NCBI GenBank assembly: GCA_046757665.1
Contig: JBHHYO010000074.1
Location: forward strand, 1 to 12,698
DNA from: Nitrospinales bacterium
GTDB taxonomy: Bacteria > Nitrospinota > Nitrospinia > Nitrospinales > JAJDAT01
Length of the DNA stretch: 12,698 nt
Direction: 5' to 3'
Of this stretch, positions 1-12,566 are shown in pieces. The stretch's first letter is position 1; each line of letters begins with the position of its first letter. The notes under the pieces were generated by a model. The model was not told the origin of the DNA. It saw nothing but the letters and a program-made list of their open reading frames with translations, and did no database searches. A program made the translations under genes and the position numbers.

Positions 1-2012
1 GTTTTGATGCCGGTGGACAGCATGTCGATGCGGGTTTTGATCGGCATGGTCCAGGCATTAGTCACACCGGGAAAGTTAATGGCCGCATTCATCTCTTCAA
101 TCAGCTTCTTGATTGTCATTCCCGGGCGCCATTGTTCTTCCGGTTTGAGCATGATCGTGGTTTCCATCATGCTCAGGGGCGCCGGGTCGGTGGCGGTTTC
201 CGCCCGCCCGATCTTGCCGAACACGTGATGAACTTCCGGAAATTTTTTGATGATCTTGTCCGTCTGCTGAAGCAGTTCCTTGGCCTTGGTGATCGAGATG
301 CCGGGCAAGGTCGTCGGCATGTACAACAGGTCTCCCTCGTTGAGGGGAGGCATGAATTCCGAACCGATTTGTTTCAAGGGTATCATGCTCAGGGCAACCA
401 CGAAAATGGCGCCCAGGATCACAAGGGTTTTCATTTTTAAAGCCAGCCGAATGATAGGGTTGTAGATCAACCATAAAATCCAGTTGACGGGATTTTGCTT
501 TTCGGGAAGGATTCTGCCCCTGACGAAGTAGCCCATCATAACGGGAACAAGGGTCACCGCCAGAATGGCCGACGCCGCCATGGAGTAGGTTTTCGTAAAC
601 GCCAGAGGAGAGAACAAACGGCCCTCCTGGGCTTGCAGGGTCAAAACGGGCAAAAAGGATACGGTGATGATCAGCAGACTGAAAAAGATGGCCGGACCAA
701 CCGCCGCGGAAGCCTCGTAGATGATCTGCCAATGGTCCTTCTTGCCGCGGTCCTGCTCAAGATGCTTGTGCGCGCTTTCGATCATGACGATGGCGCCGAC
801 AATCATGGCGCCGATGGCGATGGCGATTCCGCCCAGGGACATGATGTTGGCGTTGAGCCCCTGGTAATACATGATGATGAACGCCATGAGAACGCCCATG
901 AGAACGGAGAAAATGGCGACCATCGCGGACCGCAAATGCAGGAGAAAGATGACGCAGATGGCCGCGACCATCAGGTTTTCCTCGATCAGTTTTCCTTTCA
1001 GGGTGTCGACCGCTCGCAGGATGAGGCTGGAACGGTCATAGACGGGGATGACCTCCACCCCTTCCGGAAGTCCGGCCTTCAACTCCGCCAGTTTTTGTTT
1101 GACGCCGTTGATGACTTTCAGGGCGTTTTCGCCGAAACGCATGATGACAATTCCACCCGCCACCTCTCCCTCGCCGTTAAGCTCGACCAGTCCGCGTCTC
1201 AACTCCGGCCCCAGTTGAACGTGCGCCACGTCGCGAATCAGGATGGGGGTTCCGCGGGCGTCCACCCCCACGGGAATCGTCTCGATGTCGCCGATATTTT
1301 TAATGTAGCCCAGTCCCCTGACCATGAACTCCATCTCGGACATCTCCAGAAGCCGCCCACCGACGTCGTTGTTGCTTCGCTTGATGGCCATGAAGATTTT
1401 ATGCAACGGGATGTTGTAGGCGATAAGCCGGTTGGGGTCCACCTCCACCTGGTATTGCTTGACGTAGCCGCCGATACTGGCAACTTCGGAGACACCGGAG
1501 ACGGTTTGCAGTTCATAGCGAAGATACCAGTCCTGGATGGAGCGCAATTCGGAGAGATCGTGTTTGCCGGTTCTGTCTACAATAGCGTATTCGAAAACCC
1601 ATCCGACTCCCGTGGCATCCGGCCCCAACGACGGGTTGACTTCCTTGGGCAGTCGTCCCGAAACAAAGTTCAAGTATTCCAGAACGCGGCTACGCGCCCA
1701 GTACATGTCCGTCCCGTCCTCGAATATGATGTAGACGAAGGAAAAGCCGAAGAAAGAATAACCGCGCACGACCTTGGCGAACGGCACCGACAACATGGCC
1801 GTGGTCAAGGGATAGGTGATCTGATCCTCAACGATTTGCGGCGCCTGCCCGGGGTATTTGGTGAAAATGATCACCTGCACGTCGCTGAGGTCGGGAATGG
1901 CGTCGAGCGGCATCCGTTGCAGGACGAAAATACCCCAGACAATGATGAAGCCGGTCCCCAGAAGAACAAGAAATCGATTTTTGAGAGATGCCGCAATGAT
2001 TTTTTTGAGCAT
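1..2012 (-). CDS. cusA: CusA/CzcA-family heavy-metal efflux RND permease, Cu(I)/Ag(I) type; N-terminal 670 codons, 3' end outside window
   Basis: Manually translated open frame from ATG at 2012: [16 protein letters not shown]...[37 protein letters not shown]...[11 protein letters not shown]...[13 protein letters not shown]...[22 protein letters not shown]...[11 protein letters not shown]...[17 protein letters not shown]. Frame is the same at both ends. Not in the ORF track because there is no stop codon in the window. Confidence 0.97.
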
Positions 2013-2017
2013 TGTTT

Positions 2018-2968
2018 TTAGTTAAGGGAACGATCTCGAATTCGAGAAAGATATTTTTGGGGTGATTGGTTAAACTCCGTGGCACAGGTTTGCGAACAAA
2101 AATAATAGATTCGATCCCGAAATTGCGCTTTCAAGGCGTGGCGGGTATCGTGCACCGGCATTCCACATACGGGATCATATGAAGAATTGCGATTGTCGTA
2201 TTGAATGAACGTTTGGAATGCTTTTTCAAAGGTGGGATCAAATTGAGTTCCCGCGGCCTGTGCTATGATTTCCAGAGCCCGTTGTTTGCTGAGTGCCTTT
2301 CGGTAGGCGCGGTCACAACTCATGGCATCATAGGCATCCACAAAACTTATTATTCTTGAGCCCAATGGAATCTCTTGAGCGTTAAGGCCGTCCGGGTACC
2401 CCGTACCATCGTATTTTTCATGATGATGACGGATGATTTTCACGATGTTTTCAAATCCCTTTAATGTTTTGAGGGCGTCGGCTCCATATACGGGATGTTT
2501 TTTAATCCAGTGAAATTCTTCTTCATTTAATTTGTCGGGTTTTTTTAAAATGGCGTCGGGTATGCCAATTTTCCCGATATCATGCAACTCCGCCGCCATG
2601 GAGATTTCTTCTATATCCTCCGAAGGCAATTGCAGATATTCGCTAAAACTTTGCGCTAAATCCCTAACACGCCTCGAATGTCCTTCCGTATAAGGGTCCT
2701 TTAGATCGATGAGGGAAACGAGCGCCAGTTTTATGCCCATCAGTGTTTCAATAGTATCCTGCTGAAAGCGCAGGATTTTTGAAACATCGCCTACCAGTAA
2801 ACCGCAAAAAATCATAACACTGACAAACATGCCCACCATGATTTCACTATGGTATTGCTCGTGGATTATACCTCCGACAAAAGAATCGATCAGAACAAGC
2901 AAGGCAACCATGCCTATTCCGATGATTTTCCACCCCATGCGTGTTTTTTTTAGGATCGAGGAGGCCAT
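2018..2968 (-). CDS. Membrane-anchored HD-GYP domain phosphodiesterase with C-terminal YHS/TRASH metal-binding domain
   Basis: Two N-terminal hydrophobic segments. HD-GYP motifs [55 protein letters not shown]-terminal DPVCGM...YYFCSQTC...F...PQKY (2051-2176). Alternative start ATG at 2938. Confidence 0.93.
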
Positions 2969-3047
2969 GATTTCCGTTATTTCAAAAGCTGTTCTCGGCT
3001 TTCCACTTTCGAGGACCGTTGCATAACCCGGGGCTTCGCCGCCGCGG

Positions 3048-3153
3048 TGTCATCGCGAGCCGCTACCCGCGGCGTGGCGATCCAGCCGGGCCACGCCCGG
3101 TGGGAAAGGTTCTTTCTGGATTGCTTCGTCGGCTGAGCCTTCTCGCAATGACA
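3048..3153. repeat. REP-like palindromic element resembling CGTC-tagged repeats (GTCATTGCGAG...CTCGCAATGAC type)
   Basis: Terminal inverted repeats TGTCATCGCGAG (3048-3059) and CTCGCAATGACA (3142-3153), 11/12 match. Inner arms GGCGTGGCGATCCAG (3071-3085) and CTGGATTGCTTCGTC (3116-3130). Internal hairpin CCGGGC-CAC-GCCCGG (3086-3100). Confidence 0.85.
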
Positions 3154-3178
3154 GTCAAACAAGTACACTTATACAAAG

Positions 3179-3194
3179 CTCCCACTTTGGGGAG
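3179..3194 (-). terminator. Short hairpin immediately after the cusB stop (weak terminator or processing-site candidate)
   Basis: Minus strand CTCCC-CAAAGT-GGGAG followed by CTTTGT. Stem is only 5 bp and the U tract is poor. Confidence 0.25.
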
Positions 3195-3199
3195 AATGT

Positions 3200-4954
3200 T
3201 TATTGTTTCATGCCTTCCATGTCCATGCCTTTCATGTCCATAGGCGCGGGCATTTTTTGTTTGCCCGTTTGCGGTAAAGCCTGGGATCCACCTGTTTTCC
3301 CTGTGTTTTTCGTGCTTTTTGGCTTGCTTGTTTTAAGCTTGGATTGTTGCATTTTGTTGAGAGCCTCGCGGAGGTTGCTTTCCGAGTCGATGAGGAAGTT
3401 GGAGGAGGTGACGACCTTTTCCCCGGCCTTAACTCCCTGGATCACCTGAACTTCATTATTCGCGTGACGGCCCAACACAACCTGCCGCGACTCAAATCCG
3501 CCGCTTTTATTCATGACGATCACGATATTTTTCTCTCCGGCATGGATAACCGCCACATCGGGAACGACAACGGTTTTCCGGGCGATGACTGACTTGAAAA
3601 TCAAATCGGCGTACATATCCGGTTTTAACTGCCAGTTTGGATTTCTAAACTCCGTTCTTACTTTGACGGTGCGGGTTTTCGGGTCCAAGACGGGGTCGAT
3701 AAAAGTAACCTTCCCCTTGAATTTCTTGCCCGGAAAATAGGAAAGTTGCATTTCCGTTTCCTGGCCCATTCGTATCCAGGGCAATTCATATTCATAAATC
3801 TCTCCCTGAACCCATATATTGGAAAGGTCGGCGATGGTATAAAGGCTCATTCCCGGTTTGATATACATTCCCTGCAACACGTGTTTCTTGATGACGAATC
3901 CGCGCACCGGCGAATGAATGTGCATGGTTTTTGTGATTTTCTGATTGCGAATCAACTCCTCGATCTGGTGCTCCGGAACATCAAACAACTCCAGTCGGCG
4001 GCGGGTGGACTCGAGAAGCGCCTTGGACCCCTGGGAAAGCTCGGTGAACGGATTGTCCTTAAGCGTCTGGTTGTACTTCATGGCGAGGAGCAGTTCTTCC
4101 TGTGTCGATACCAGTTCCGGGCTGTAAATTTCCGCCAGCAATTGGCCTTCCTCGACTTCCTGGCCCGTAAAATCGACATGCAGTTTCTCTACCCATCCCT
4201 CGTACTTGGTATGAACGTGGGTAACTTTTCTTTCGTCGTAAGTTAACGTTCCGATGGTCCGGATTTCCCGCTTGAGGGTTTTGACTTCTGCAATCTCCGT
4301 TTTGACTCCAATGTCTTGAACGATATTTGCCTGAATGCGGATACCGTCTCCGCCCCCCTCATCCTCGTAAACCGGGATCAAGTCCATCCCCATTGGGGAT
4401 TTCCCGGGTTTGTCGGAAATGTAACCGGCGGTCATCGGGGCTTTCCAATACTTGATTTTTCTTTGTTTTTTGGGAGGCGTTTTGTCCGGTTCGGCGTTCG
4501 CTTGCCCGGGTGGCTCTGGCGGCGGCAAGGGTTTTGGTTTTTGCGCTAATTGGGAGTCAATAACGTCCGTGATTTTCTGCGTTATGGGCCCGGATTTTTC
4601 GATAATCAATGAAGCAAATTTTTCCACATTCTTTGGGGTCTCTTGCAGGGAATCCGGGTTTGTGGAATAACCTAAAAGATAGACCAGGCCCATGGTCAGA
4701 AGGAATCCGGCAAACTTTAAAAACCTGGAAGATCGCCGAGGTCCCGCGGATTGGGATTTGGAATCGGCAGATTCCTTCATGGGAAAAATAATCTCTTCCT
4801 CGGAATCGGATTCGCCGGTATCGGACGGTCTCTCCTCGGAAAGCGGCCGTTTCAAGTTTTTGATTTCTTTCATATCGTCCTCACTTTTCCCCAAGGCGTA
4901 CTGCGCGGATTTTTCTCGAGGAGTTTTCGCAATCGTTTGTTTGAAACGTTTCAA
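3200..4954 (-). CDS. cusB: CusB-like periplasmic adaptor (membrane fusion protein) with long N-terminal extension and Met-rich C-terminal tail
   Basis: Metal-binding motif YWKAPM...KPGKSPMGMDLIPVY. MFP motifs GWVEKL, IYSPELVSTQEELL, IADLSNIWV, IDPVLDPKTRTVKVR, LKPDMYA, FLIDSESNLRE. Start uncertain: TTG at 4954 (TTGA overlap with the cusC stop) or ATG at 4873 preceded by GAGG. Confidence 0.95.
   Translation of the reverse strand: MKRFKQTIAKTPREKSAQYALGKSEDDMKEIKNLKRPLSEERPSDTGESDSEEEIIFPMKESADSKSQSAGPRRSSRFLKFAGFLLTMGLVYLLGYSTNPDSLQETPKNVEKFASLIIEKSGPITQKITDVIDSQLAQKPKPLPPPEPPGQANAEPDKTPPKKQRKIKYWKAPMTAGYISDKPGKSPMGMDLIPVYEDEGGGDGIRIQANIVQDIGVKTEIAEVKTLKREIRTIGTLTYDERKVTHVHTKYEGWVEKLHVDFTGQEVEEGQLLAEIYSPELVSTQEELLLAMKYNQTLKDNPFTELSQGSKALLESTRRRLELFDVPEHQIEELIRNQKITKTMHIHSPVRGFVIKKHVLQGMYIKPGMSLYTIADLSNIWVQGEIYEYELPWIRMGQETEMQLSYFPGKKFKGKVTFIDPVLDPKTRTVKVRTEFRNPNWQLKPDMYADLIFKSVIARKTVVVPDVAVIHAGEKNIVIVMNKSGGFESRQVVLGRHANNEVQVIQGVKAGEKVVTSSNFLIDSESNLREALNKMQQSKLKTSKPKSTKNTGKTGGSQALPQTGKQKMPAPMDMKGMDMEGMKQ
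3209..3241 (-). repeat. 15-bp tandem duplication encoding the Met-rich tail MDMKG-MDMEG-M
   Basis: CATGCCTTCCATGTC (3209-3223) and CATGCCTTTCATGTC (3224-3238), one mismatch, followed by CAT. Confidence 0.8.
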
Positions 4955-6231
4955 AATAATCTTTTACCTACGACATGTTCCAGCCGGGCAAGATTTTTTT
5001 CATAGTCAGTCAACTCCTTGTGGTACCTGATCTGCCATTTGAAAAGCGTGATCTCGTTGTCCAGCAGAGTTAAAAAATCCACCTTGTCCACGCCGTATCC
5101 GGCCAGGGCGGATTCCAGGGACTGCCGGGCCTGCGGAATAATTCCAGTCTTGATCAGCTTGAGCAGTTTGGTTCCCTTAACCTCCTCATCCAGGCTTTCC
5201 TTGATTTTCAGGAAAATCTCGTTTCGGGTTTTGTTGTAAGTTTCCTGAGCCATAATCACTTTACGATTCTCTTCAAGCACCTTGCGGCGTTGCTTGCTTT
5301 TCTGCCACAAGGGAATATTGATACCGACAAAAGCAGAGACGAAATCCGGATGGTCCAAGCCCCGCCTCAAGTTGCTTTGCCGTTGCCCGTATCGAAACCC
5401 CACGTTGAAGTCGGGGAAAAAATCCTTTTCGGCTAATCTTCCGGAAACTTTGAACCGCTCGATCACGGAACGGATTCCCTTCAATACCGGACGGCTTCCC
5501 TCGGCGGTTCTTTGCAGATTTTTGAGCGTATAATTGAACGGCGTTTTCGTGATTCCATGAGATATGGACAAAGGCGCTTGCGGCATACGGTTCATCAAGG
5601 TATTGAGTCGGGCCTTTTCGACATCTCTCCTTTTATCCAGCCGGACCAATTCGTCCATGATCTTGGACAACTCCACTTGAGCCTTTATGACATCCTGTTG
5701 AATTCCCTTGCCAACGGAATACTTGGTTTCCGCGATGGTGATGAATTGTTTCAGCAGGGATTTATTTTCCTTGGTGATTTCGATGGACGCCAAAATAAAA
5801 CAAAGCTCGTAAAATGAGACCTTGACCTCCTTGATGAGACTCAGCTTGAGGTCCTCGTAGCTTTCCTCGACAATTTTTACGTTTTTCTCGGCAATCTCCG
5901 TCCGCAGTCCCAGCTTGCCGGGGAAAGGGAATTTCTGTGACAACGTGATTTGTTTCTGCGTCATCGCCTGCGAGGAAAATGAAAAACTGTCGGTCGGCAA
6001 GTTCTTCAACTCAAACTTCAGCATGGGGTCGTCCAGGGAGCCTGCCTGAGAGGGAATCTCCTTGTAAGCCTTGATTTTTTCCCTGGCTTCCTTCAGTTCG
6101 GGATTATTTTCCAGCGCTTCGGTTATAAACCGGTTTAAATTTTCCTTGAATTTACGGGTTTGCTGACCCCAGACCAGGCCGGTATGGGCACAAAAAACCA
6201 GCAAAACAAGAATCGATACCCATCGTTTCAT
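4951..6231 (-). CDS. TolC-family outer membrane efflux protein (CusC role)
   Basis: Signal peptide, ALENNPEL, LSQKFPFPGKL, YSVGKGIQQDVIKAQVE, VGINIPLW, GYGVDKVDFLTLLD. GAGG upstream of ATG. Located directly upstream of the MFP and RND genes. Confidence 0.94.
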   Translation of the reverse strand: MKRWVSILVLLVFCAHTGLVWGQQTRKFKENLNRFITEALENNPELKEAREKIKAYKEIPSQAGSLDDPMLKFELKNLPTDSFSFSSQAMTQKQITLSQKFPFPGKLGLRTEIAEKNVKIVEESYEDLKLSLIKEVKVSFYELCFILASIEITKENKSLLKQFITIAETKYSVGKGIQQDVIKAQVELSKIMDELVRLDKRRDVEKARLNTLMNRMPQAPLSISHGITKTPFNYTLKNLQRTAEGSRPVLKGIRSVIERFKVSGRLAEKDFFPDFNVGFRYGQRQSNLRRGLDHPDFVSAFVGINIPLWQKSKQRRKVLEENRKVIMAQETYNKTRNEIFLKIKESLDEEVKGTKLLKLIKTGIIPQARQSLESALAGYGVDKVDFLTLLDNEITLFKWQIRYHKELTDYEKNLARLEHVVGKRLF

Positions 6232-6333
6232 AGTCGCCTCTGGTTAATTTGATTTTGGGAACCGGGAATCCTCGCGGACAAACCGGCTCAAAAAGGCAAA
6301 CCACGCCTCGTGTTAAATCTTAAACAGCCAGGG

Positions 6334-6347
6334 TGTAACGTGTTACA
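6334..6347. promoter_or_regulatory. 14-bp dyad TGTAAC-GT-GTTACA in the spacer between the leader ORF and the TolC gene (possible operator)
   Basis: Perfect 6-bp arms, flanked by near-direct repeats AACAGCCAGGG (6323-6333) and AACAGCCGGG (6351-6360). Confidence 0.35.
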
Positions 6348-6367
6348 GGGAACAGCCGGGATGGGTG

Positions 6368-6637
6368 TTATTGTCTGGGAGGATGGTAGACGGGATTTAA
6401 AAAGATGAAATCGAATTTCTCAAAAGCCACCGGAACGTTGCACACAGGAGGGAAAACAAGGTCCGGGTCCGAGAAATCAGCCGCGGCAAAAACCACGCAG
6501 GAATGGCAACTGACCTTCATCGGACAATCCGTGGGAGACATGTCGTGCGTCATGGCGATTGAACTGTTGACCATGAAAAGGCAAAACAGCCCAACCAATA
6601 TGGCCGCCGCAAGAGGATGTTTTCGCAACATTCGCAT
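6368..6637 (-). CDS. Small exported Cys-motif protein or leader peptide of the CutF/CruR (DUF2946)/CzcI-like class
   Basis: N-terminal signal-like hydrophobic segment, Met/His patch MTHDM, CxxC (CHSC, residues 44-47) and C-terminal YHPPRQ. First gene of a heavy-metal RND operon. Confidence 0.8.
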   Translation of the reverse strand: MRMLRKHPLAAAILVGLFCLFMVNSSIAMTHDMSPTDCPMKVSCHSCVVFAAADFSDPDLVFPPVCNVPVAFEKFDFIFLNPVYHPPRQ

Positions 6638-6673
6638 AACAATATGATTTGTTGTAGATTATGCTTTTCTTTT

Positions 6674-6701
6674 AAGCTAATCCCTTTTTTTCAAATGTCA
6701 A
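6674..6701 (-). promoter_or_regulatory. Sigma70-type promoter for the leader/cus operon
   Basis: Minus strand TTGACA (6701-6696), 16-bp spacer, TAGCTT (6679-6674), about 36 bp upstream of the leader ATG. Confidence 0.65.
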
Positions 6702-6813
6702 GTTTTTTTGTCCGCGCCGGCGGGCCGGTTTTTCCTCCAGCCGTCCACCGTTTGGAGTATGATAGGTGCCTTGGCCCGGAGCCTCATGAAAAATTTCGCC
6801 GGAAAGATCAACG

Positions 6814-7602
6814 ATGGAACTGATTGAAGCAAAAGACGCCGCCTTGTCTTACCTGAAACCGGCCACGCGGGAAGTTTTGAAGTATTTTCGCTCGGACGTG
6901 ACCGTCGATGAAAAATCCGACGGTAGCCCGGTGACCATCGCCGACCGCAACGCCGAGGAAATCCTGCGAAAACGCATCAGCCGCGACTTCCCCGGTCACG
7001 GGATCATCGGCGAGGAATTCGGCAACGAGTCCGCCACCGCGGAGTGGGTATGGACCATAGACCCGATCGACGGAACGCTGTCATTCATTCACGACCTGCC
7101 TTTTTTCTCCATGTTGCTGGCCCTGTTGCATCGCGGCCGGCCGGTTATGGGAGTGCTTTCCCTGCCCGCCCTCGGCGAAACGGCCTGGGCCGTGAAGGGC
7201 CGGGGAACCCATTGCAACCGCGGGCGCGTCCGGGTCTCCCAATGCAACAGCTTGAAAAACGCCGTGGCGGCCACCGCCGACCGGTATTGCTTCAAGGAAA
7301 AAAAGTGCCTGCACCTGTATGACCGGATTTACCAACACACCGCCCTGGCGCGCACGTATCCCGACGCCTTTGGCCACTGGATGGCCATCCGCGGGGCCGT
7401 AGATATCATGGTGGACCCGTGGGCCTGTATCTGGGACTTCGCGCCGTGTAAAATCCTGGCGGAGGAAGCGGGAGGCCGTTTCGCCAATTTCACCGGCAAC
7501 AAGGGATCGATCACCGAGGGAACCGCCATCGTCGGCAATGCCGCGCTGGTGCGGCAAGTCAGAACGCTATACCTGAAAGGAAAGAACACCGCGCGCCGTT
7601 GA
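6814..7602 (+). CDS. hisN: Inositol monophosphatase family protein, probably histidinol-phosphate phosphatase (HisN-like)
   Basis: Motifs KSDGSPVTIADRNAE, IIGEEFG, WTIDPIDGTLSF, IWDFAP, EEAGG. Family is clear; substrate specificity is inferred. Confidence 0.8.
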   Translation: MELIEAKDAALSYLKPATREVLKYFRSDVTVDEKSDGSPVTIADRNAEEILRKRISRDFPGHGIIGEEFGNESATAEWVWTIDPIDGTLSFIHDLPFFSMLLALLHRGRPVMGVLSLPALGETAWAVKGRGTHCNRGRVRVSQCNSLKNAVAATADRYCFKEKKCLHLYDRIYQHTALARTYPDAFGHWMAIRGAVDIMVDPWACIWDFAPCKILAEEAGGRFANFTGNKGSITEGTAIVGNAALVRQVRTLYLKGKNTARR

Positions 7603-7607
7603 GGCGG

Positions 7608-7988
7608 TCAAAGTTTTTGCCGGCCGGCATAACCCGCGTCCAGATCGTGCCAGAAACGAACTTCCTCCTCGGGAATTTTCCAACAAAGAAAAACCTCCCG
7701 GCCGTTCAGGATCGCGGGAAAATCCACCAGACCCTCGGCGATTCCCTTGATAATGCAACCCTCATCCGACAAGTCGTTCATAGCCCGGTTGAGTTGCAGG
7801 GCGACCTGCAAATAAGCGGAGCCCTGCTCACTGCCTCCATTGAAGCGGGCATTTTCCCGCGCCTTCTCGACGTCGGGAAACTGGTTGGCCAACCGGGCCG
7901 CCAGGCTCTGAATACGGGGAACATCCTTGAGCAACCTGGGCACCAGGGAATTGGCTTCATTCACGGTAAAATGTTTTTTGAACGCCAT
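7608..7988 (-). CDS. DUF2203 family protein
   Basis: FTVNEANSLVP...IKGIAEGLVDFP...EVFLCWK..E....WH...AGYAGR matches the recalled DUF2203 pattern. ATG at 7988 preferred over the upstream start at 7997. Confidence 0.85.
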   Translation of the reverse strand: MAFKKHFTVNEANSLVPRLLKDVPRIQSLAARLANQFPDVEKARENARFNGGSEQGSAYLQVALQLNRAMNDLSDEGCIIKGIAEGLVDFPAILNGREVFLCWKIPEEEVRFWHDLDAGYAGRQKL

Positions 7989-8037
7989 AAGGCACAATGG
8001 GGGAAAAAGGTTGACCGGGCGAGCTTTTTCAATCCCG

Positions 8038-8066
8038 ATTATAATTTATCACAGCGGACCTGTCCA
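8038..8066 (-). promoter_or_regulatory. Sigma70-type promoter for the DUF2203 gene
   Basis: Minus strand TGGACA (8066-8061), 17-bp spacer, TATAAT (8043-8038). Confidence 0.65.
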
Positions 8067-8215
8067 ATTGATTAGCGGAAATTTTTCCGGCATCAATGAG
8101 CCTGTTTTATCATAAATTTTATCGGCGCCGGGAAGGGACGGGAAAACCGCCAACGGCCCGCGGGATAAGAAAATTCTGAAAATGCACCCTAAGCGGAAAT
8201 TCGGGCTTTTTTTAA

Positions 8216-8244
8216 TTGACAAACCGTATGTAAGGATATAGATT
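8216..8244 (+). promoter_or_regulatory. Sigma70-type promoter for the exported hypothetical protein
   Basis: TTGACA (8216-8221), 17-bp spacer, TAGATT (8239-8244), with a T-rich tract upstream. Confidence 0.7.
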
Positions 8245-8361
8245 TTGAACTATAAATTAAGAATACCCTGCGGCGGAACAGCGCGAATAAAACGCATCAA
8301 CCAGCCGATCGCTTAAATTTTCCTGAGTTTAACCATGTCTCAAAAAAACAAGGGGGGACAA

Positions 8362-8832
8362 ATGAAAAAACCATTAATCCTAGCCTCAGTTGTTGCATTT
8401 GTTGCCGCAATGTCCTTGGGCGTCGCGGTTTCTTTTGCGGACGAGTTGTTGCCGGGCGCTTATGCCCAGCAAGACCAGAGCGTCATGGGTGTCGGCAAAA
8501 CCATGGTTGAAATGGGTGCCGCCGACCGTGCCCTGACCAACGCCGTGAACCTGGCTTCCGGAGCCGGCAGGTCCAGAAACACTTCGTTTGGTGTCAACGT
8601 GGACTATCAGTTCGGGTCATCGCAGTCAGACCAGTCCTGGAAAGCCGCCAGAACCGTCGAGGAAGCGCAAGTGCGCGGACTGGTCCCCGGCGATTGCCAG
8701 GGCGACAACTCCACGGACGCTTACAGGAAGCAAATGAATCAAAGCCGGGATGGATACGTGCAAGAGAAGCTGATCCCCAACAACATCTGCGGGGACCACC
8801 ACCCGACCATAAAAATCGGGGCGACCAACTAA
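8362..8832 (+). CDS. Exported hypothetical protein
   Basis: Sec-type signal MKKPLILASVVAFVAAMSLGVAVSFA and ribosome-binding site AAGGGGG before the ATG at 8362 (ORF track starts at 8335). Has its own promoter and a downstream hairpin. No family recognised. Confidence 0.85.
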   Translation: MKKPLILASVVAFVAAMSLGVAVSFADELLPGAYAQQDQSVMGVGKTMVEMGAADRALTNAVNLASGAGRSRNTSFGVNVDYQFGSSQSDQSWKAARTVEEAQVRGLVPGDCQGDNSTDAYRKQMNQSRDGYVQEKLIPNNICGDHHPTIKIGATN

Positions 8833-8856
8833 GCTCATATTGGCGCATTTATCCCT

Positions 8857-8889
8857 TCCCGGACGAAAAGCAGTACCGCCCGTCCGGGA
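8857..8889 (+). terminator. Stem-loop downstream of the exported hypothetical protein
   Basis: TCCCGGACG (8857-8865) and CGTCCGGGA (8881-8889) form a perfect 9-bp stem with a 15-nt loop. No U tract, so it is not a classical intrinsic terminator. Confidence 0.4.
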
Positions 8890-8922
8890 CAATATCGATC
8901 AACATGGTAAAAAGCCGGTAGA

Positions 8923-9396
8923 ATGAAAATTCTATCGGCTTTTTCTTTACGCCCCTTCTCCCCAATCCCGCACTCCATGGTCCGGCGGATTCTCCTGTTA
9001 CTCTGCATCCTGCATCTCATGCAACCTGTCCCCTCCCTGCCTGCCGAAAAGATTTCCTTGAAACAGTATCCCACTCTCAGTATCCCGGTGACGAATCCGG
9101 TGGACCTTAGCCGACTGCCCCGGGACAAAATGTTCCAGGTGAAGGACGAACAATTCATCCTGCAATTTTTTTTCAACGAACGGGACATATTCGGATTTAT
9201 CATGAAACGCGACAAAAAACTCCCGTTATACCTCCGGTGGTGTTTTTTCCGTTCCTGCGAGGAAAGCCCGTTCGATTACACGGTCCGCATCGCGGCGCCC
9301 TACCAGCCGCCTTTTGTTAAGGGATTTTTTGTGGTCAACTTCCCGCCCGGAATTCAATACGACTTTCAAGGATTGTTGTTCTCCTCACCTCGTTAA
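8923..9396 (+). CDS. Hypothetical protein, probably exported (likely start ATG 8977)
   Basis: Fills the gap between neighbours. From M19, MVRRILLLLCILHLMQPVPSLPA resembles a signal peptide. Aromatic-rich body with WCFFRSCEES. No family recognised. Confidence 0.7.
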   Translation: MKILSAFSLRPFSPIPHSMVRRILLLLCILHLMQPVPSLPAEKISLKQYPTLSIPVTNPVDLSRLPRDKMFQVKDEQFILQFFFNERDIFGFIMKRDKKLPLYLRWCFFRSCEESPFDYTVRIAAPYQPPFVKGFFVVNFPPGIQYDFQGLLFSSPR

Positions 9397-9440
9397 AAAT
9401 GACGCAAGGAGAAGCCTTTGTCCCGTTTCCGGCTGGTCCT

Positions 9441-9449
9441 TGGTATAAT
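9441..9449 (+). promoter_or_regulatory. Extended -10 promoter for the DUF1566 gene
   Basis: TG-G-TATAAT at 9441-9449, about 45 bp upstream of the ATG at 9495. No well-spaced -35 seen. Confidence 0.55.
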
Positions 9450-9494
9450 TTGTTCAAGCGAATAAATTCCAAAACCACCATCCATGAGGTTGTT

Positions 9495-9929
9495 ATGACC
9501 ACAAACAGATTTGTCGATAACGGCAACGACACCATAACCGACTCGGACACGGGACTGACCTGGCTCAAACGGGATTCCCGGCAGATAACAAAAAAATGGC
9601 TCCACCTGGAAAAAGCCCGGGAGTTCGCGGAAGAATTAAACGCCGCCCGGTTCGGCGGTTTTGACGACTGGAGGGTGCCGAAACTGGAAGACGTTAAAAC
9701 CATTTTCGACAAAAAGTTCACCCTCCTGACCCACGGAAACGACGAGATTCATATTCCGCCGGTTTTCGAGGCCGGTTGCACCGACAGCACATGGACCGAC
9801 GAGGTGAATGGAGAACGGGCCATGGTGTACAGTCTCATCAAGGGAAGGTCGAGCTGGATCAACAAACTGGGGGAAGGCCCCTTTGCCGTTCGCCTGGTGC
9901 GGGGCACGGCAAAAGACAAGGGGATTTAA
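9495..9929 (+). CDS. DUF1566 (Lcl C-terminal-like) domain protein
   Basis: RFVDNGNDTITDSDTGLTW, LNAARFGGFDDWRVP, W(T) and VRLVR are typical DUF1566 motifs. GAGGT precedes the ATG at 9495. Stop overlaps the convergent symporter stop (TTAA, 9926-9929). Confidence 0.88.
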   Translation: MTTNRFVDNGNDTITDSDTGLTWLKRDSRQITKKWLHLEKAREFAEELNAARFGGFDDWRVPKLEDVKTIFDKKFTLLTHGNDEIHIPPVFEAGCTDSTWTDEVNGERAMVYSLIKGRSSWINKLGEGPFAVRLVRGTAKDKGI

Positions 9930-11152
9930 TGCTCCTCCACAAACTTTTCTTCCAGCCGGTCGATGATCGCCGCGCCGATGGAATCGCCCCAGACGTTGAC
10001 GGTTGTCCGGCACCGGTCCAGAAACCAGTCGATAGCCAGAAGCATCCCGATGCCTTCCAGCGGCAGTCCAACCGACTGGAGAACCATCACCAGGGTCACC
10101 AACCCGGCTTCGGGGATTCCGGCGGCGCCCACCGCGGCCAGCGTCGCGGTTAAAAAAATGACGGTCTGTTCCGCGAAGCCCAGGTGAATCTGAAACACCT
10201 GGGCAATGAACAAAGCCGCAACCGCCTCGTACATGGCGGTGCCGTCCATATTCACCGTGGCGCCCAGGGGGAGGACAAACAAAGACGCTTTCCGTGACAC
10301 CTTGTTGTTTTGCTCGGCGCACTCGATGGTGACCGGAAGCGTGGCCGAACTGCTGGCCGTGGAGAAAGCCGTGATCAAAGCCTCCCCGGCGTTTTTCAGG
10401 TAAACCACCGGGTTTCTGCGCGTAAAAACGACCAGCAAAACCGGCAACACAACGACCGCATGAACCAGGAGCCCGCTGACTACGGTCAAAACGTATTTGC
10501 CGATTTTCACCAGCTCCGCAAGAAACGCATCCCCGCCGCCGGTCGCGCCCAGCTTCGAGGCAATCAATCCGAAAATCCCAAGAGGCGCCAAATACATCAC
10601 CAGATGAACGATTTTCATCATGGCGGCATTGACGACATCGAAAAAATCAATGACCACCTTGCCCTTGGTCCCCAAAGTTGTCAGGACCCCTCCAAACAAC
10701 AGGGAAAAAACAATCAACGGAAGAATCTCCATTTCCACCATGGAACGGACAAGGTTCGGCGAGACAAACGTCTGCAAAATCGTGGTCAGGCCCACGGACT
10801 CTTTTCCGGAAACCTTTTCCGGCAGGTCCAGGGCTCCGGCTTCCATTCCCACTCCCGGCTGAATCAGGTTGACCAATAACAACCCGATCACTACCGAAAC
10901 GGCCGTGGTGAGCATGTAATAACCCAAAGTGATGACACCGGTTTTCCCCAGCTTGCGGATATCGCCCAACCCCGCGATGCCCACGATCATGGAAGAGACA
11001 ATCAGCGGCACCACGAGCATTTTCAAGGCATCGAGGAAAAGTTCTCCCATCCAGGCAACCGCCAGCATGGACTTCCCAAAGGTCCAGCCGCACACCCCGC
11101 CGCTCAGGATTCCGATGACAGTCAGGAAGAGGAGCCGGTTTTTCTTTTTCAT
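9926..11152 (-). CDS. Dicarboxylate/amino acid:cation symporter (DAACS/SDF family, GltP/GltPh-like)
   Basis: LKMLVVPLI, AFSTASSSATLP, VLPLGATVNMDGTA, VGAAGIPEAG, DWFLDRCRTTVNVWGD. The NMDGT motif is of the glutamate/aspartate transporter type. Confidence 0.96.
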   Translation of the reverse strand: MKKKNRLLFLTVIGILSGGVCGWTFGKSMLAVAWMGELFLDALKMLVVPLIVSSMIVGIAGLGDIRKLGKTGVITLGYYMLTTAVSVVIGLLLVNLIQPGVGMEAGALDLPEKVSGKESVGLTTILQTFVSPNLVRSMVEMEILPLIVFSLLFGGVLTTLGTKGKVVIDFFDVVNAAMMKIVHLVMYLAPLGIFGLIASKLGATGGGDAFLAELVKIGKYVLTVVSGLLVHAVVVLPVLLVVFTRRNPVVYLKNAGEALITAFSTASSSATLPVTIECAEQNNKVSRKASLFVLPLGATVNMDGTAMYEAVAALFIAQVFQIHLGFAEQTVIFLTATLAAVGAAGIPEAGLVTLVMVLQSVGLPLEGIGMLLAIDWFLDRCRTTVNVWGDSIGAAIIDRLEEKFVEEH

Positions 11153-11276
11153 CGATCACCGCCCGGTCGTCGTTTTCGCAATAAGGGATGTTCGGCCCAA
11201 GGGAAATGGAGTATATTGTTATCCGCTGATCCCAGCGGTGTTAAATTGAAGTCCGACATCAAACTTGGAGGCCCCC

Positions 11277-12566
11277 ATGGCAGAAACGGTTACAGTTACC
11301 CATCAAGGGAAAACGTTTGAATTGCCCATCGTAACAGGCCGCATGGGCGAACGGGGAATCGATATTTCCAACTTGCTTGCCAAAACCGGGTTGATCGCTT
11401 TTGATCCGGGGTATGTCAATACCGGGTCGTGCAAAAGCGCGATAACTTATCTCGACGGCAATAAAGGCATTCTCCTGTACCGGGGAATCCCCATCGAGCA
11501 ACTTGCCGAAAAAAGCACGTTTATCGAAACCGCCTACCTTCTTATTTATGGAAAACTGCCCACGCAATCCGAACTGGACGAGTTTCATTACCACATCGTT
11601 CATCATTCGATGGTTCACGAATCCATCAAAAACCTTTACGACGGATTCCCCAACAATCCGCACCCCATGGCCGTTTGTAGCGCGGTGGTGGGCTCCCTGG
11701 CCACTTTTTACGCGGGGGAATTGGGCGTCCGCAACGAGCGCCAGGTGGAGATCGCCATTCACCGGCTTTTAGCCAAACTGCCCACCATTGCCGCCTACAG
11801 TTACAAAAAATCCATTGGCCAGCCCCTGCCCTACCCCAACAACGCCATGAGCTATACGCAAAATTTTCTCAACATGATGTTCTCCACGCCCTGCGAGGAT
11901 TACCAAGTGGACCCGCTGGCCGCCAAGACCCTGGATGTCCTGCTCATCCTGCACGCCGACCACGAGCAAAACTGTTCCACCAGCGCCGTGCGCCTGGTAG
12001 GCAGTTCCATGTGCAATCTGTTTGCCTCGGTTTCAGCCGGAATTTATGCCTTGTGGGGACCTCTGCACGGCGGGGCCAACCAGGCGGTCATCGAAATGCT
12101 TCAACATATCAAAACTGACGGCGGAAATGTCAATAAATATATCGAAAAGGCAAAAGACCACAAAGATCCCTTCCGGCTCATGGGATTCGGACACCGCGTT
12201 TACAAAAATTTTGACCCCCGGTGCAAGATCATCAAAAAACTGGCCCATGAAGTTATGGAAAAATTGCAGATCAAGGAACCGCTATTCGATATCGCTCTCA
12301 GTCTGGAGGAAGTCGCCCTCAAGGAATCCTATTTCATCGAAAAAAAGCTGTACCCCAATGTCGATTTTTATTCCGGCCTGATTTACAAGGCATTGAATAT
12401 TCCCGTCAACATGTTTCCCGTCATGTTTGCCATGGGACGGTTGCCCGGCTGGATTGCCCAATGGAAAGAACTGCAGGAAGACAAAAATTTCAAAATCGGC
12501 CGGCCACGGCAAATTTATTCGGGCAACCCGCAAACCGATTACGTTCCCATTGAACAAAGACAATAG
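11277..12566 (+). CDS. gltA: Citrate synthase
   Basis: DPGYVNTGSCKSAITYLDG, LHADHEQNCSTS, WGPLHGGANQ, GFGHRVYK, YPNVDFYSG, RPRQIY. GGAGG precedes the ATG at 11277. Confidence 0.98.
   Translation: MAETVTVTHQGKTFELPIVTGRMGERGIDISNLLAKTGLIAFDPGYVNTGSCKSAITYLDGNKGILLYRGIPIEQLAEKSTFIETAYLLIYGKLPTQSELDEFHYHIVHHSMVHESIKNLYDGFPNNPHPMAVCSAVVGSLATFYAGELGVRNERQVEIAIHRLLAKLPTIAAYSYKKSIGQPLPYPNNAMSYTQNFLNMMFSTPCEDYQVDPLAAKTLDVLLILHADHEQNCSTSAVRLVGSSMCNLFASVSAGIYALWGPLHGGANQAVIEMLQHIKTDGGNVNKYIEKAKDHKDPFRLMGFGHRVYKNFDPRCKIIKKLAHEVMEKLQIKEPLFDIALSLEEVALKESYFIEKKLYPNVDFYSGLIYKALNIPVNMFPVMFAMGRLPGWIAQWKELQEDKNFKIGRPRQIYSGNPQTDYVPIEQRQ

Follow-up and report, generated by a model that had tools for sequence, protein, structure and literature searches.

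A Cu(I)/Ag(I) efflux operon of a Nitrospinales bacterium with a probable cyclic-dinucleotide phosphodiesterase between cusB and cusA

Introduction

A contig of an uncultured, marine-type Nitrospinales bacterium (GenBank assembly GCA_046757665.1, contig JBHHYO010000074.1) carries a gene for an HD-GYP phosphodiesterase (PDE) with a C-terminal YHS domain between cusB and cusA, raising the question of what a signalling enzyme does inside a metal efflux operon. The window analysed here is this complete contig (G000:C74; 12,698 nt), taken from a genome of 2.97 Mb in 160 contigs that is 97.6% complete. Five open frames run head to tail on its minus strand and encode a small protein, an outer-membrane factor (OMF), CusB, the PDE and CusA. 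An earlier note on this DNA had suggested that the operon turns copper or silver status into a second-messenger change and that CusA serves the PDE as a receptor or metal conduit. In our best reading, the locus is a cusCBA-type Cu(I)/Ag(I) efflux operon of the resistance-nodulation-division (RND) class, found in the Nitrospina-like phylum, with a pump of the working type and an add-on PDE. We lean towards the fuller view that this efflux operon has acquired a copper-sensing, cyclic-dinucleotide PDE as its add-on.

An HD-GYP phosphodiesterase fused to a YHS domain

The PDE gene (2018..2968, minus strand) encodes a membrane-anchored protein of 316 amino acids (aa) with Pfam matches to HD_5, HD and YHS. 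The HD-GYP catalytic domain (residues 83-246; 2231..2722, minus strand) matched HD_5 (PF13487) with E = 3.1e-42 and 144.6 bits against a cut-off of 27.2, and the YHS domain at the C-terminus (residues 265-308; 2045..2176, minus strand) matched PF04945 with 42.6 bits against a cut-off of 30.3. The HD, HHE and GYP motifs were located at H129-D130, H182-H183-E184 and G190-Y191-P192. Across 29 members of the PDE family, H97, H129, D130, H158, H183, E184, G190, Y191, P192, D211 and D214 were invariant, as were D265, C268, C291 and C295 of the YHS domain, and the motif residues of both domains were also invariant among the eight operon-linked PDEs. With all conserved HD-GYP and YHS residues present, the domain make-up given in the earlier note was borne out. 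The two domains were always fused via a short linker across the family, and the fusion was represented by ~60 to 70 clusters at 90% identity. A shorter form of ~270 aa with a single transmembrane (TM) segment was also seen, under the NCBI name Nitrospinae bacterium.

An AlphaFold2 model of the PDE (mean predicted local distance difference test score, pLDDT, 81.1) consists at its N-terminus of a helix spanning residues 2-31, a short loop and a helix spanning residues 40-90. On this model the protein is predicted to be anchored in the inner membrane through a hairpin of two helices, of which the second continues as one long helix into the HD-GYP domain. Two residues near the outer tip of this second helix, H40 and M44, were invariant in the eight operon-linked PDEs but not family-wide. 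The best Foldseek matches of the model were PmGH (4mcw, E = 1.2e-11), PA4781 (4r8z, E = 1.8e-11) and DvhD (9rbz, E = 6.6e-11), whilst the best sequence matches in the PDB were V-cGAP3 (5z7c, E = 2e-41) followed by PmGH (E = 1.1e-35). Sequence alone does not separate HD-GYP enzymes acting on cyclic di-GMP (c-di-GMP) from those acting on cyclic GMP-AMP (cGAMP); the PDE probably breaks down a cyclic-dinucleotide messenger. A messenger system of this kind is present in the genome, which has 5 GGDEF, 6 HD-GYP and 1 PilZ matches.

The GC content at third codon positions (GC3) of the PDE gene was 0.45, compared with 0.74 for cusA in the window, and was lower than that of cusA in all seven relatives compared (L013-L107). 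Low GC3 had suggested horizontal transfer of the PDE, a possibility that was rejected on finding an equal offset in all seven. The offset is therefore a property of the gene and gives no sign of recent transfer.

Occurrence and gene neighbourhood of the phosphodiesterase

The names given to the closest known proteins put the organism among Nitrospina-like bacteria. PDE orthologs (48-54% identity, covering the YHS domain) were found in 12/102 genomes of the order and 12/120 genomes of the phylum, the genome of the window included. The order OMF-CusB-PDE-CusA was present in the window and in 8/11 PDE-bearing relatives. A neighbourhood search for cusB-[HD-GYP+YHS]-cusA, which the earlier note had proposed as a check, thus shows an arrangement that recurs in eight relatives and is not limited to this genome. 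In a further 2/11 relatives the PDE gene immediately adjoins one for a multicopper oxidase, accompanied in one of the two by a MerR regulator, and YHS-headed CopA ATPases or multicopper oxidases occur downstream of cusA in L013, L014 and L104. Taken together, the neighbourhoods place the PDE in a copper-handling context in 11/12 genomes.

The PDE and cusA genes are separated by a 5-nt spacer, AAACA (2013..2017, minus strand), between the PDE stop codon TAA (2020-2018) and the cusA ATG at 2012, and no purine-rich stretch precedes the ATG in this junction. Spacing in the relatives ranged from a 1-nt overlap to 12 nt, so that the close spacing without an obvious Shine-Dalgarno sequence pointed out in the earlier note holds here and is also conserved among relatives. 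Contigs of sequencing runs X1 and X2, placed on positions 1-7000, bridge the junction; these runs are possibly the source sample and hence not independent of the window. The organism was absent from run X5.

CusA orthologs at E<=1e-150 were detected in 48/120 genomes. Among the 30 best CusA loci, nine carried the PDE and 21 had cusB directly before cusA. On a tree of these 30 CusAs, the presence of the PDE needs approximately five changes (gains or losses), three pairs of sister loci from the same genus have it in one member only, and a single PDE clade was rejected by the approximately unbiased (AU) test (p-AU = 4.7e-5). Given this turnover between sister operons, the PDE cannot be counted as an obligatory component of the pump. 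It is a facultative insert into an existing operon and probably an optional signalling add-on rather than a pump subunit. The standard operon of the lineage comprises a small periplasmic protein with a Cys motif, the OMF, CusB and CusA, without CusF and without an adjacent regulator.

Scans with the PDE alignment over wider genome contigs (at least 603 stretches) and metagenome contigs (at least 599) gave only generic HD-GYP proteins among the matches listed. In the phylum of genome G120, where five candidates were scored per genome, no YHS fusion was found: 7/401 genomes matched at E<=1e-52, none of them beyond residue 255. As a separate observation, a secreted protein of ~193 aa without a family is encoded just after cusA or copA in two of the relatives (L014:15616-16200, L016:5325-5906); tblastn found no match to it in the genome of the window.

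Valine at the proton-relay position of CusA

The cusA frame (3..2012, minus strand) encodes the first 670 residues of the permease and runs off the contig. It matched TIGR00914 with 831 bits (cut-off 701), ACR_tran with E = 3.2e-143 and the E. coli CusA structures with E = 1.5e-272. The C-terminal 258 residues lie at the end of another contig (G000:C68:13726-14499), ~104 residues being unassembled, and this fragment is 70% identical to residues 775-1032 of a CusA ortholog. The window protein keeps M573, M623, M672, R83, E567, D617, E625, R669, K678, E412 and, on C68, E939. The Met triad M573/M623/M672 is shared with eight orthologs and is missing from the two CzcA-like paralogs of the genome.

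In E. coli CusA, the proton relay is made up of D405, E939 and K984, and point mutants are unable to transport, according to the available text of PMC8092243. Only E939 of this triad is kept here; D405 is replaced by Val and K984 by Ile. The codon concerned is GTC (798..800, minus strand), whose residue corresponds in the alignment to D405 of the E. coli K-12 protein, in agreement with the Val at position 405 reported in the earlier note. Codon 405 is covered by contigs of X1 and X2 without differing letters, with the same reservation that these may derive from the source sample and are not independent. Stretches common to the cusA genes of other organisms break the assembly graph near 804-866, and unitigs break at 807-831. 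A chimeric assembly at codon 405 was judged unlikely, given equal depth on both sides and ~80% identity of both halves to orthologs; it is also countered by the occurrence of the stretch VGAIVMIES in two single-cell genomes.

Those genomes belong to Candidatus Nitromaritima and encode P0128 and its cluster mate P0241, which are 85.7% identical to the window CusA and share VGAIVMIES with it. Of the 120 best CusA homologs, 118 cover position 405 in TM segment 4, and these comprise 115 with Asp, two with Val (the window protein and P0128) and one with Ala (the protein of G023). D405V, N413S, F465L, L557I, L908M and V988A were common to the window protein and P0128 and occurred in none of 47 Asp-type orthologs, with V988A recurring in the Ala405 protein of G023. 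V988 adjoins T987, the residue that hydrogen-bonds D405 in E. coli CusA (PMC8092243, in the text available). The window CusA alters 16/463 columns that are invariant in Asp-type orthologs, compared with 14/529 to 29/544 for long branches of the Asp type. Because V405 is common to diverged proteins and conservation falls in the Asp-type range, it represents a maintained state of a lineage and not an error or a fresh lesion. The substitution to Val405 is thus genuine and confined to a small lineage, and it alters the relay site together with N413S and V988A. A single clade for the loss of Asp was not rejected (AU p = 0.19), and the best tree parts L015 from the window. This lineage offers a natural experiment on the RND proton relay.

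The remaining heavy-metal RND genes of the genome (on contigs C7 and C27; ~35% identical) keep the Asp and lack the Met triad, which makes the window CusA the only assembled Cu(I)-type RND permease. The earlier note had asked whether a second, D405-intact cusA exists; two RND paralogs do have the Asp, but as neither has the Met triad they do not amount to a second cusA.

These observations bear on whether the operon is decaying, in which case V405 would have killed the pump, a repeat would have inserted into a spacer and the PDE-cusA pair would be a relic without coupled function. The failure of E. coli CusA D405 mutants to transport (PMC8092243, available text) speaks for this, as do the want of a second Met-triad CusA, C7 and C27 both lacking the triad, and the structure of the cusB-PDE spacer. 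This spacer measures 231 nt in the window (2969-3199), compared with 12-24 nt in relatives and 152 nt in L013, and contains a terminator-like hairpin and a copy of an interspersed genomic repeat (3034..3181, no strand assigned) that has >100 blastn matches on >70 contigs of the genome. The repeat is 120-150 nt long with inverted ends and reaches a contig depth of ~1615 compared with ~18 around it; it matched no Rfam family and was not present in the corresponding spacer of relatives. However, with >100 intergenic copies the repeat need not disrupt anything, all five reading frames are open, V405 and S413 also occur in full-length (1044 aa) proteins diverged by 14%, and the window protein retains 96.5% of the columns that do not vary among Asp-type orthologs. 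We regard decay as unlikely.

The earlier note had linked the loss of D405 to the PDE itself. That link did not hold: 7/9 PDE-linked CusAs keep Asp, the window having Val and G023 Ala, whilst 21/21 PDE-less CusAs have Asp. With Fisher's exact p = 36/435 = 0.08 and related genomes in the sample, there is no correlation of D405 loss with the PDE. This matters for the proposal that the PDE and CusA are physical partners and that CusA, uncoupled by the loss of D405, is a metal receptor or conduit instead of a pump, which we consider very unlikely. The proposal draws on the close PDE-cusA spacing without a Shine-Dalgarno sequence, conserved in relatives, on the location of both proteins in the inner membrane, and on the fact that both non-Asp CusAs of the 30 loci are PDE-linked (2/9 versus 0/21), although these cases are too few and too related. 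It is also in keeping with N413S and V988A accompanying V405, with V988A being found in the Ala405 protein too, and with the continued conservation of the V405 protein. On the other hand, Asp is kept in seven of nine PDE-linked permeases, and sister operons differ by gain or loss of the PDE, which also occurs away from cus genes, beside a multicopper oxidase or among unrelated genes. The OMF and CusB, superfluous for a receptor, are intact in the window. Furthermore, none of the 120 PDE relatives listed came from the V405 single-cell genomes, a weak point as their context is unread. A complex prediction for CusA (residues 1-670) and the PDE, made with an alignment of eight rows for each and without controls, scored 0.00 and weighs neither for nor against the proposal. 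With the Met triad and the other transport residues intact and the PDE not obligatory, the receptor or conduit role was not upheld, and a pump of the working type remains the preferred reading of CusA.

A narrower version concerns only the small CusA lineage of the window, the two Nitromaritima genomes and perhaps G023, in which energy coupling may have changed or a transporter may have turned into a sensor that hands on metal or a conformational signal to the PDE. In both non-Asp cases with readable context, cusA is closely coupled to the HD-GYP enzyme gene. We rate this version as improbable.

A possible route from copper to a cyclic dinucleotide

Under the reading that we favour, a Cu(I)/Ag(I) efflux operon with a copper-sensing PDE, the enzyme would be made together with the pump and closely coupled to cusA. 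Its YHS domain would bind cytoplasmic copper and thereby change HD-GYP activity, and a further, periplasmic input may come from the conserved His40/Met44 pair at the outer tip of the hairpin. Copper stress would then alter the level of c-di-GMP (or 3'3'-cGAMP) and, in turn, any behaviour under its control. The analysis shows which genes are present and conserved, their copper context, the intactness of the motifs and the existence of a V405 lineage; that the YHS domain senses copper, which substrate is cleaved, that the genes are transcribed together and what the cell gains from it are parts of the scheme that we infer. If the YHS domain makes the HD-GYP domain copper-responsive, the operon would be a compact natural link between metal efflux and cyclic-dinucleotide signalling, and it occurs in ecologically important marine nitrite oxidisers and their relatives.

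Precedents exist for each half of the scheme. In Mycobacterium phlei, copper activates an adenylyl cyclase that carries a YHS domain at its C-terminus, and this domain is described as a probable copper sensor (PMC4626032, in the text available). The cyclase resembles the PDE in being a second-messenger enzyme whose C-terminal YHS domain follows a short linker and bears the conserved Asp and three Cys; unlike the PDE, it is of class III, makes cyclic AMP and, in the available text of PMC4626032, is not said to belong to a metal efflux operon. The urf2/mrp EAL phosphodiesterase of the Tn501/Tn21 mer operons is metal-induced, as stated in the available text of PMC6629876. It resembles the present case as a c-di-GMP phosphodiesterase gene within a metal-resistance operon, induced by metal, and differs in having an EAL rather than an HD-GYP domain, in lacking a metal-binding domain of its own and in belonging to a mercury operon and not an RND operon (PMC6629876, same text). 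The operon in the window unites the two ideas, a YHS-regulated enzyme and an operon-borne PDE, here for an HD-GYP enzyme encoded alongside a Cu/Ag pump of the RND class.

The PDE shares its fold (Foldseek E ~1e-11) and its HD/HHE/GYP motifs with PmGH, PA4781, DvhD and V-cGAP3. Whereas these known enzymes carry N-terminal REC, PAS or GAF-like sensors, the PDE has an N-terminal hairpin of two TM segments and a C-terminal YHS domain. No description of the HD-GYP+YHS fusion or of a PDE-bearing cus operon was found in the titles and abstracts of the searchable literature. In term searches of the main text of two comparative papers on these bacteria (PMC5029188, PMC10839748), neither c-di-GMP nor HD-GYP turned up, and the cus operon is undescribed in both to the extent that 'efflux' is absent from the main text of PMC5029188 and 'CusA' from that of PMC10839748 by the same searches.

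Several points weigh against the favoured reading. The closest solved sequence, V-cGAP3, is specific for cGAMP and outranks the c-di-GMP enzyme PmGH. In the complete genome G007, the PDE is surrounded by unrelated genes and the cus operon lies at another locus. No RNA run was listed as containing the stretch. Copper binding by the YHS domain of the window PDE is proposed by analogy. In the window, a 231-nt spacer with the repeat copy and a weak terminator-like hairpin parts cusB from the PDE. By analogy with the E. coli D405 mutants, which do not transport (PMC8092243, available text), the pump of the window may not pump. K984 is Ile in all CusAs of the clade, D405-bearing ones included. Being clade-wide, this last substitution also means that the E. 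coli relay triad is not general and that E. coli rules may not transfer.

A further alternative turns on the YHS tail, which might serve mainly as a cytoplasmic copper buffer or as a donor to CusA or CopA, the HD-GYP domain acting on another nucleotide or being regulated by something other than copper, with no relay between them. YHS domains do head CopA ATPases of the same gene clusters, V-cGAP3 as the closest solved sequence is cGAMP-specific, and a methionine path for entry from the cytoplasm exists in E. coli CusA (PMC8092243, available text). Against this, the HD-GYP catalytic residues are invariant family-wide and the domains are always fused by a short linker, the YHS domain of the precedent on a nucleotide enzyme is regulatory (PMC4626032, available text), and the PDE is also found without an adjoining cusA or copA. 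We regard this alternative as decidedly improbable. As for the suggestion that the operon turns copper or silver status into a second-messenger change, the copper-linked conserved gene order and the intact motifs of the PDE speak for it, and the part that fell away was the link to the loss of D405.

The pump and the remaining genes of the operon

Compared with E. coli CusCFBA, the permease of the window is ~60% identical over 670 residues (245/399 and 155/271 aligned columns), and the Met triad, the charged transport residues and the presence of a CusB-type adaptor and an OMF in one operon are shared. The window differs in having no CusF, no adjacent CusRS and a small Cys-motif protein as its first gene product, in an adaptor with an N-terminal tail and membrane segment, in the HD-GYP+YHS gene between cusB and cusA, and in the replacement of D405 by Val and, clade-wide, of K984 by Ile.

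The small secreted or anchored protein (89 aa; 6368..6637, minus strand) has a signal-like N-terminus, a C-x5-C-x2-C motif and a C-terminal YHPPR. It matched no Pfam or NCBIfam family, and in 20 members of its family Pfam gave nothing above the cut-off; a protein atlas returned unnamed clusters only, plus a weak lead to DUF6660. Its family comprises 61 representatives at E<=1e-3 among 1.84 billion proteins, with members of ~90 aa, and C38, C44, C47, P86 and P87 were invariant across 30 sequences. Homologs lie directly upstream of the OMF gene in seven PDE-bearing relatives (the contig of the eighth ends inside the OMF), and also head 8/8 sampled PDE-less cus operons. Heading cus operons with and without the PDE, the small protein belongs to the older operon. 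It is thus a Cys-motif protein without a family name whose gene comes first in all the cus operons sampled from the phylum, and it may stand in for CusF.

The OMF of the TolC/CusC type (426 aa; 4951..6231, minus strand) matched PF02321 with E = 4.9e-40 and was 57-67% identical to those in the operons of relatives. The CusB-like periplasmic adaptor (584 aa; 3200..4954, minus strand) matched HlyD_D23 (E = 9.3e-84) and HMBD (E = 2.1e-7), and scored 183 bits with the NF007303 CusB model, under the cut-off of 390. Its TTG start overlaps the OMF stop codon, and the choice of start codon is uncertain. The N-terminus of the adaptor consists of a charged tail with a conserved EE-x-IFPM-like stretch, one hydrophobic segment and a Pro-rich linker; its HMBD motif has the usual Cys residues replaced, and its C-terminal tail is Met-rich.

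Domain and family scans agreed with the earlier note that no cusF and no cusRS, MerR or CsoR regulator lies nearby and that the neighbour is hisN-like. The CusF domain (CusF_Ec) had no matches in the window or in the 97.6%-complete genome, family scans found no regulator families, CusRS included, on the 12.7-kb contig, and the upstream neighbour matched TIGR02067 with E = 4e-68, under the cut-off of that model. The earlier description of one co-directional unit with its own promoter stood as regards gene order and strand but not as regards the promoter: a consensus scan for sigma-70-like sites found none on the minus strand and three on the plus strand, compared with 5.3 expected from shuffles. 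A perfect -35-like hexamer, TTGACA (6696..6701, minus strand), was read directly upstream of the first gene, without a matching -10. An Rfam scan of the entire window (E<=1) found no riboswitches, its three weak matches all being under their gathering scores. Beyond the operon, positions 7608-12566 hold unrelated genes for a DUF2203 protein, two family-less frames, an Lcl_C-domain protein, a sodium:dicarboxylate symporter and a citrate synthase.

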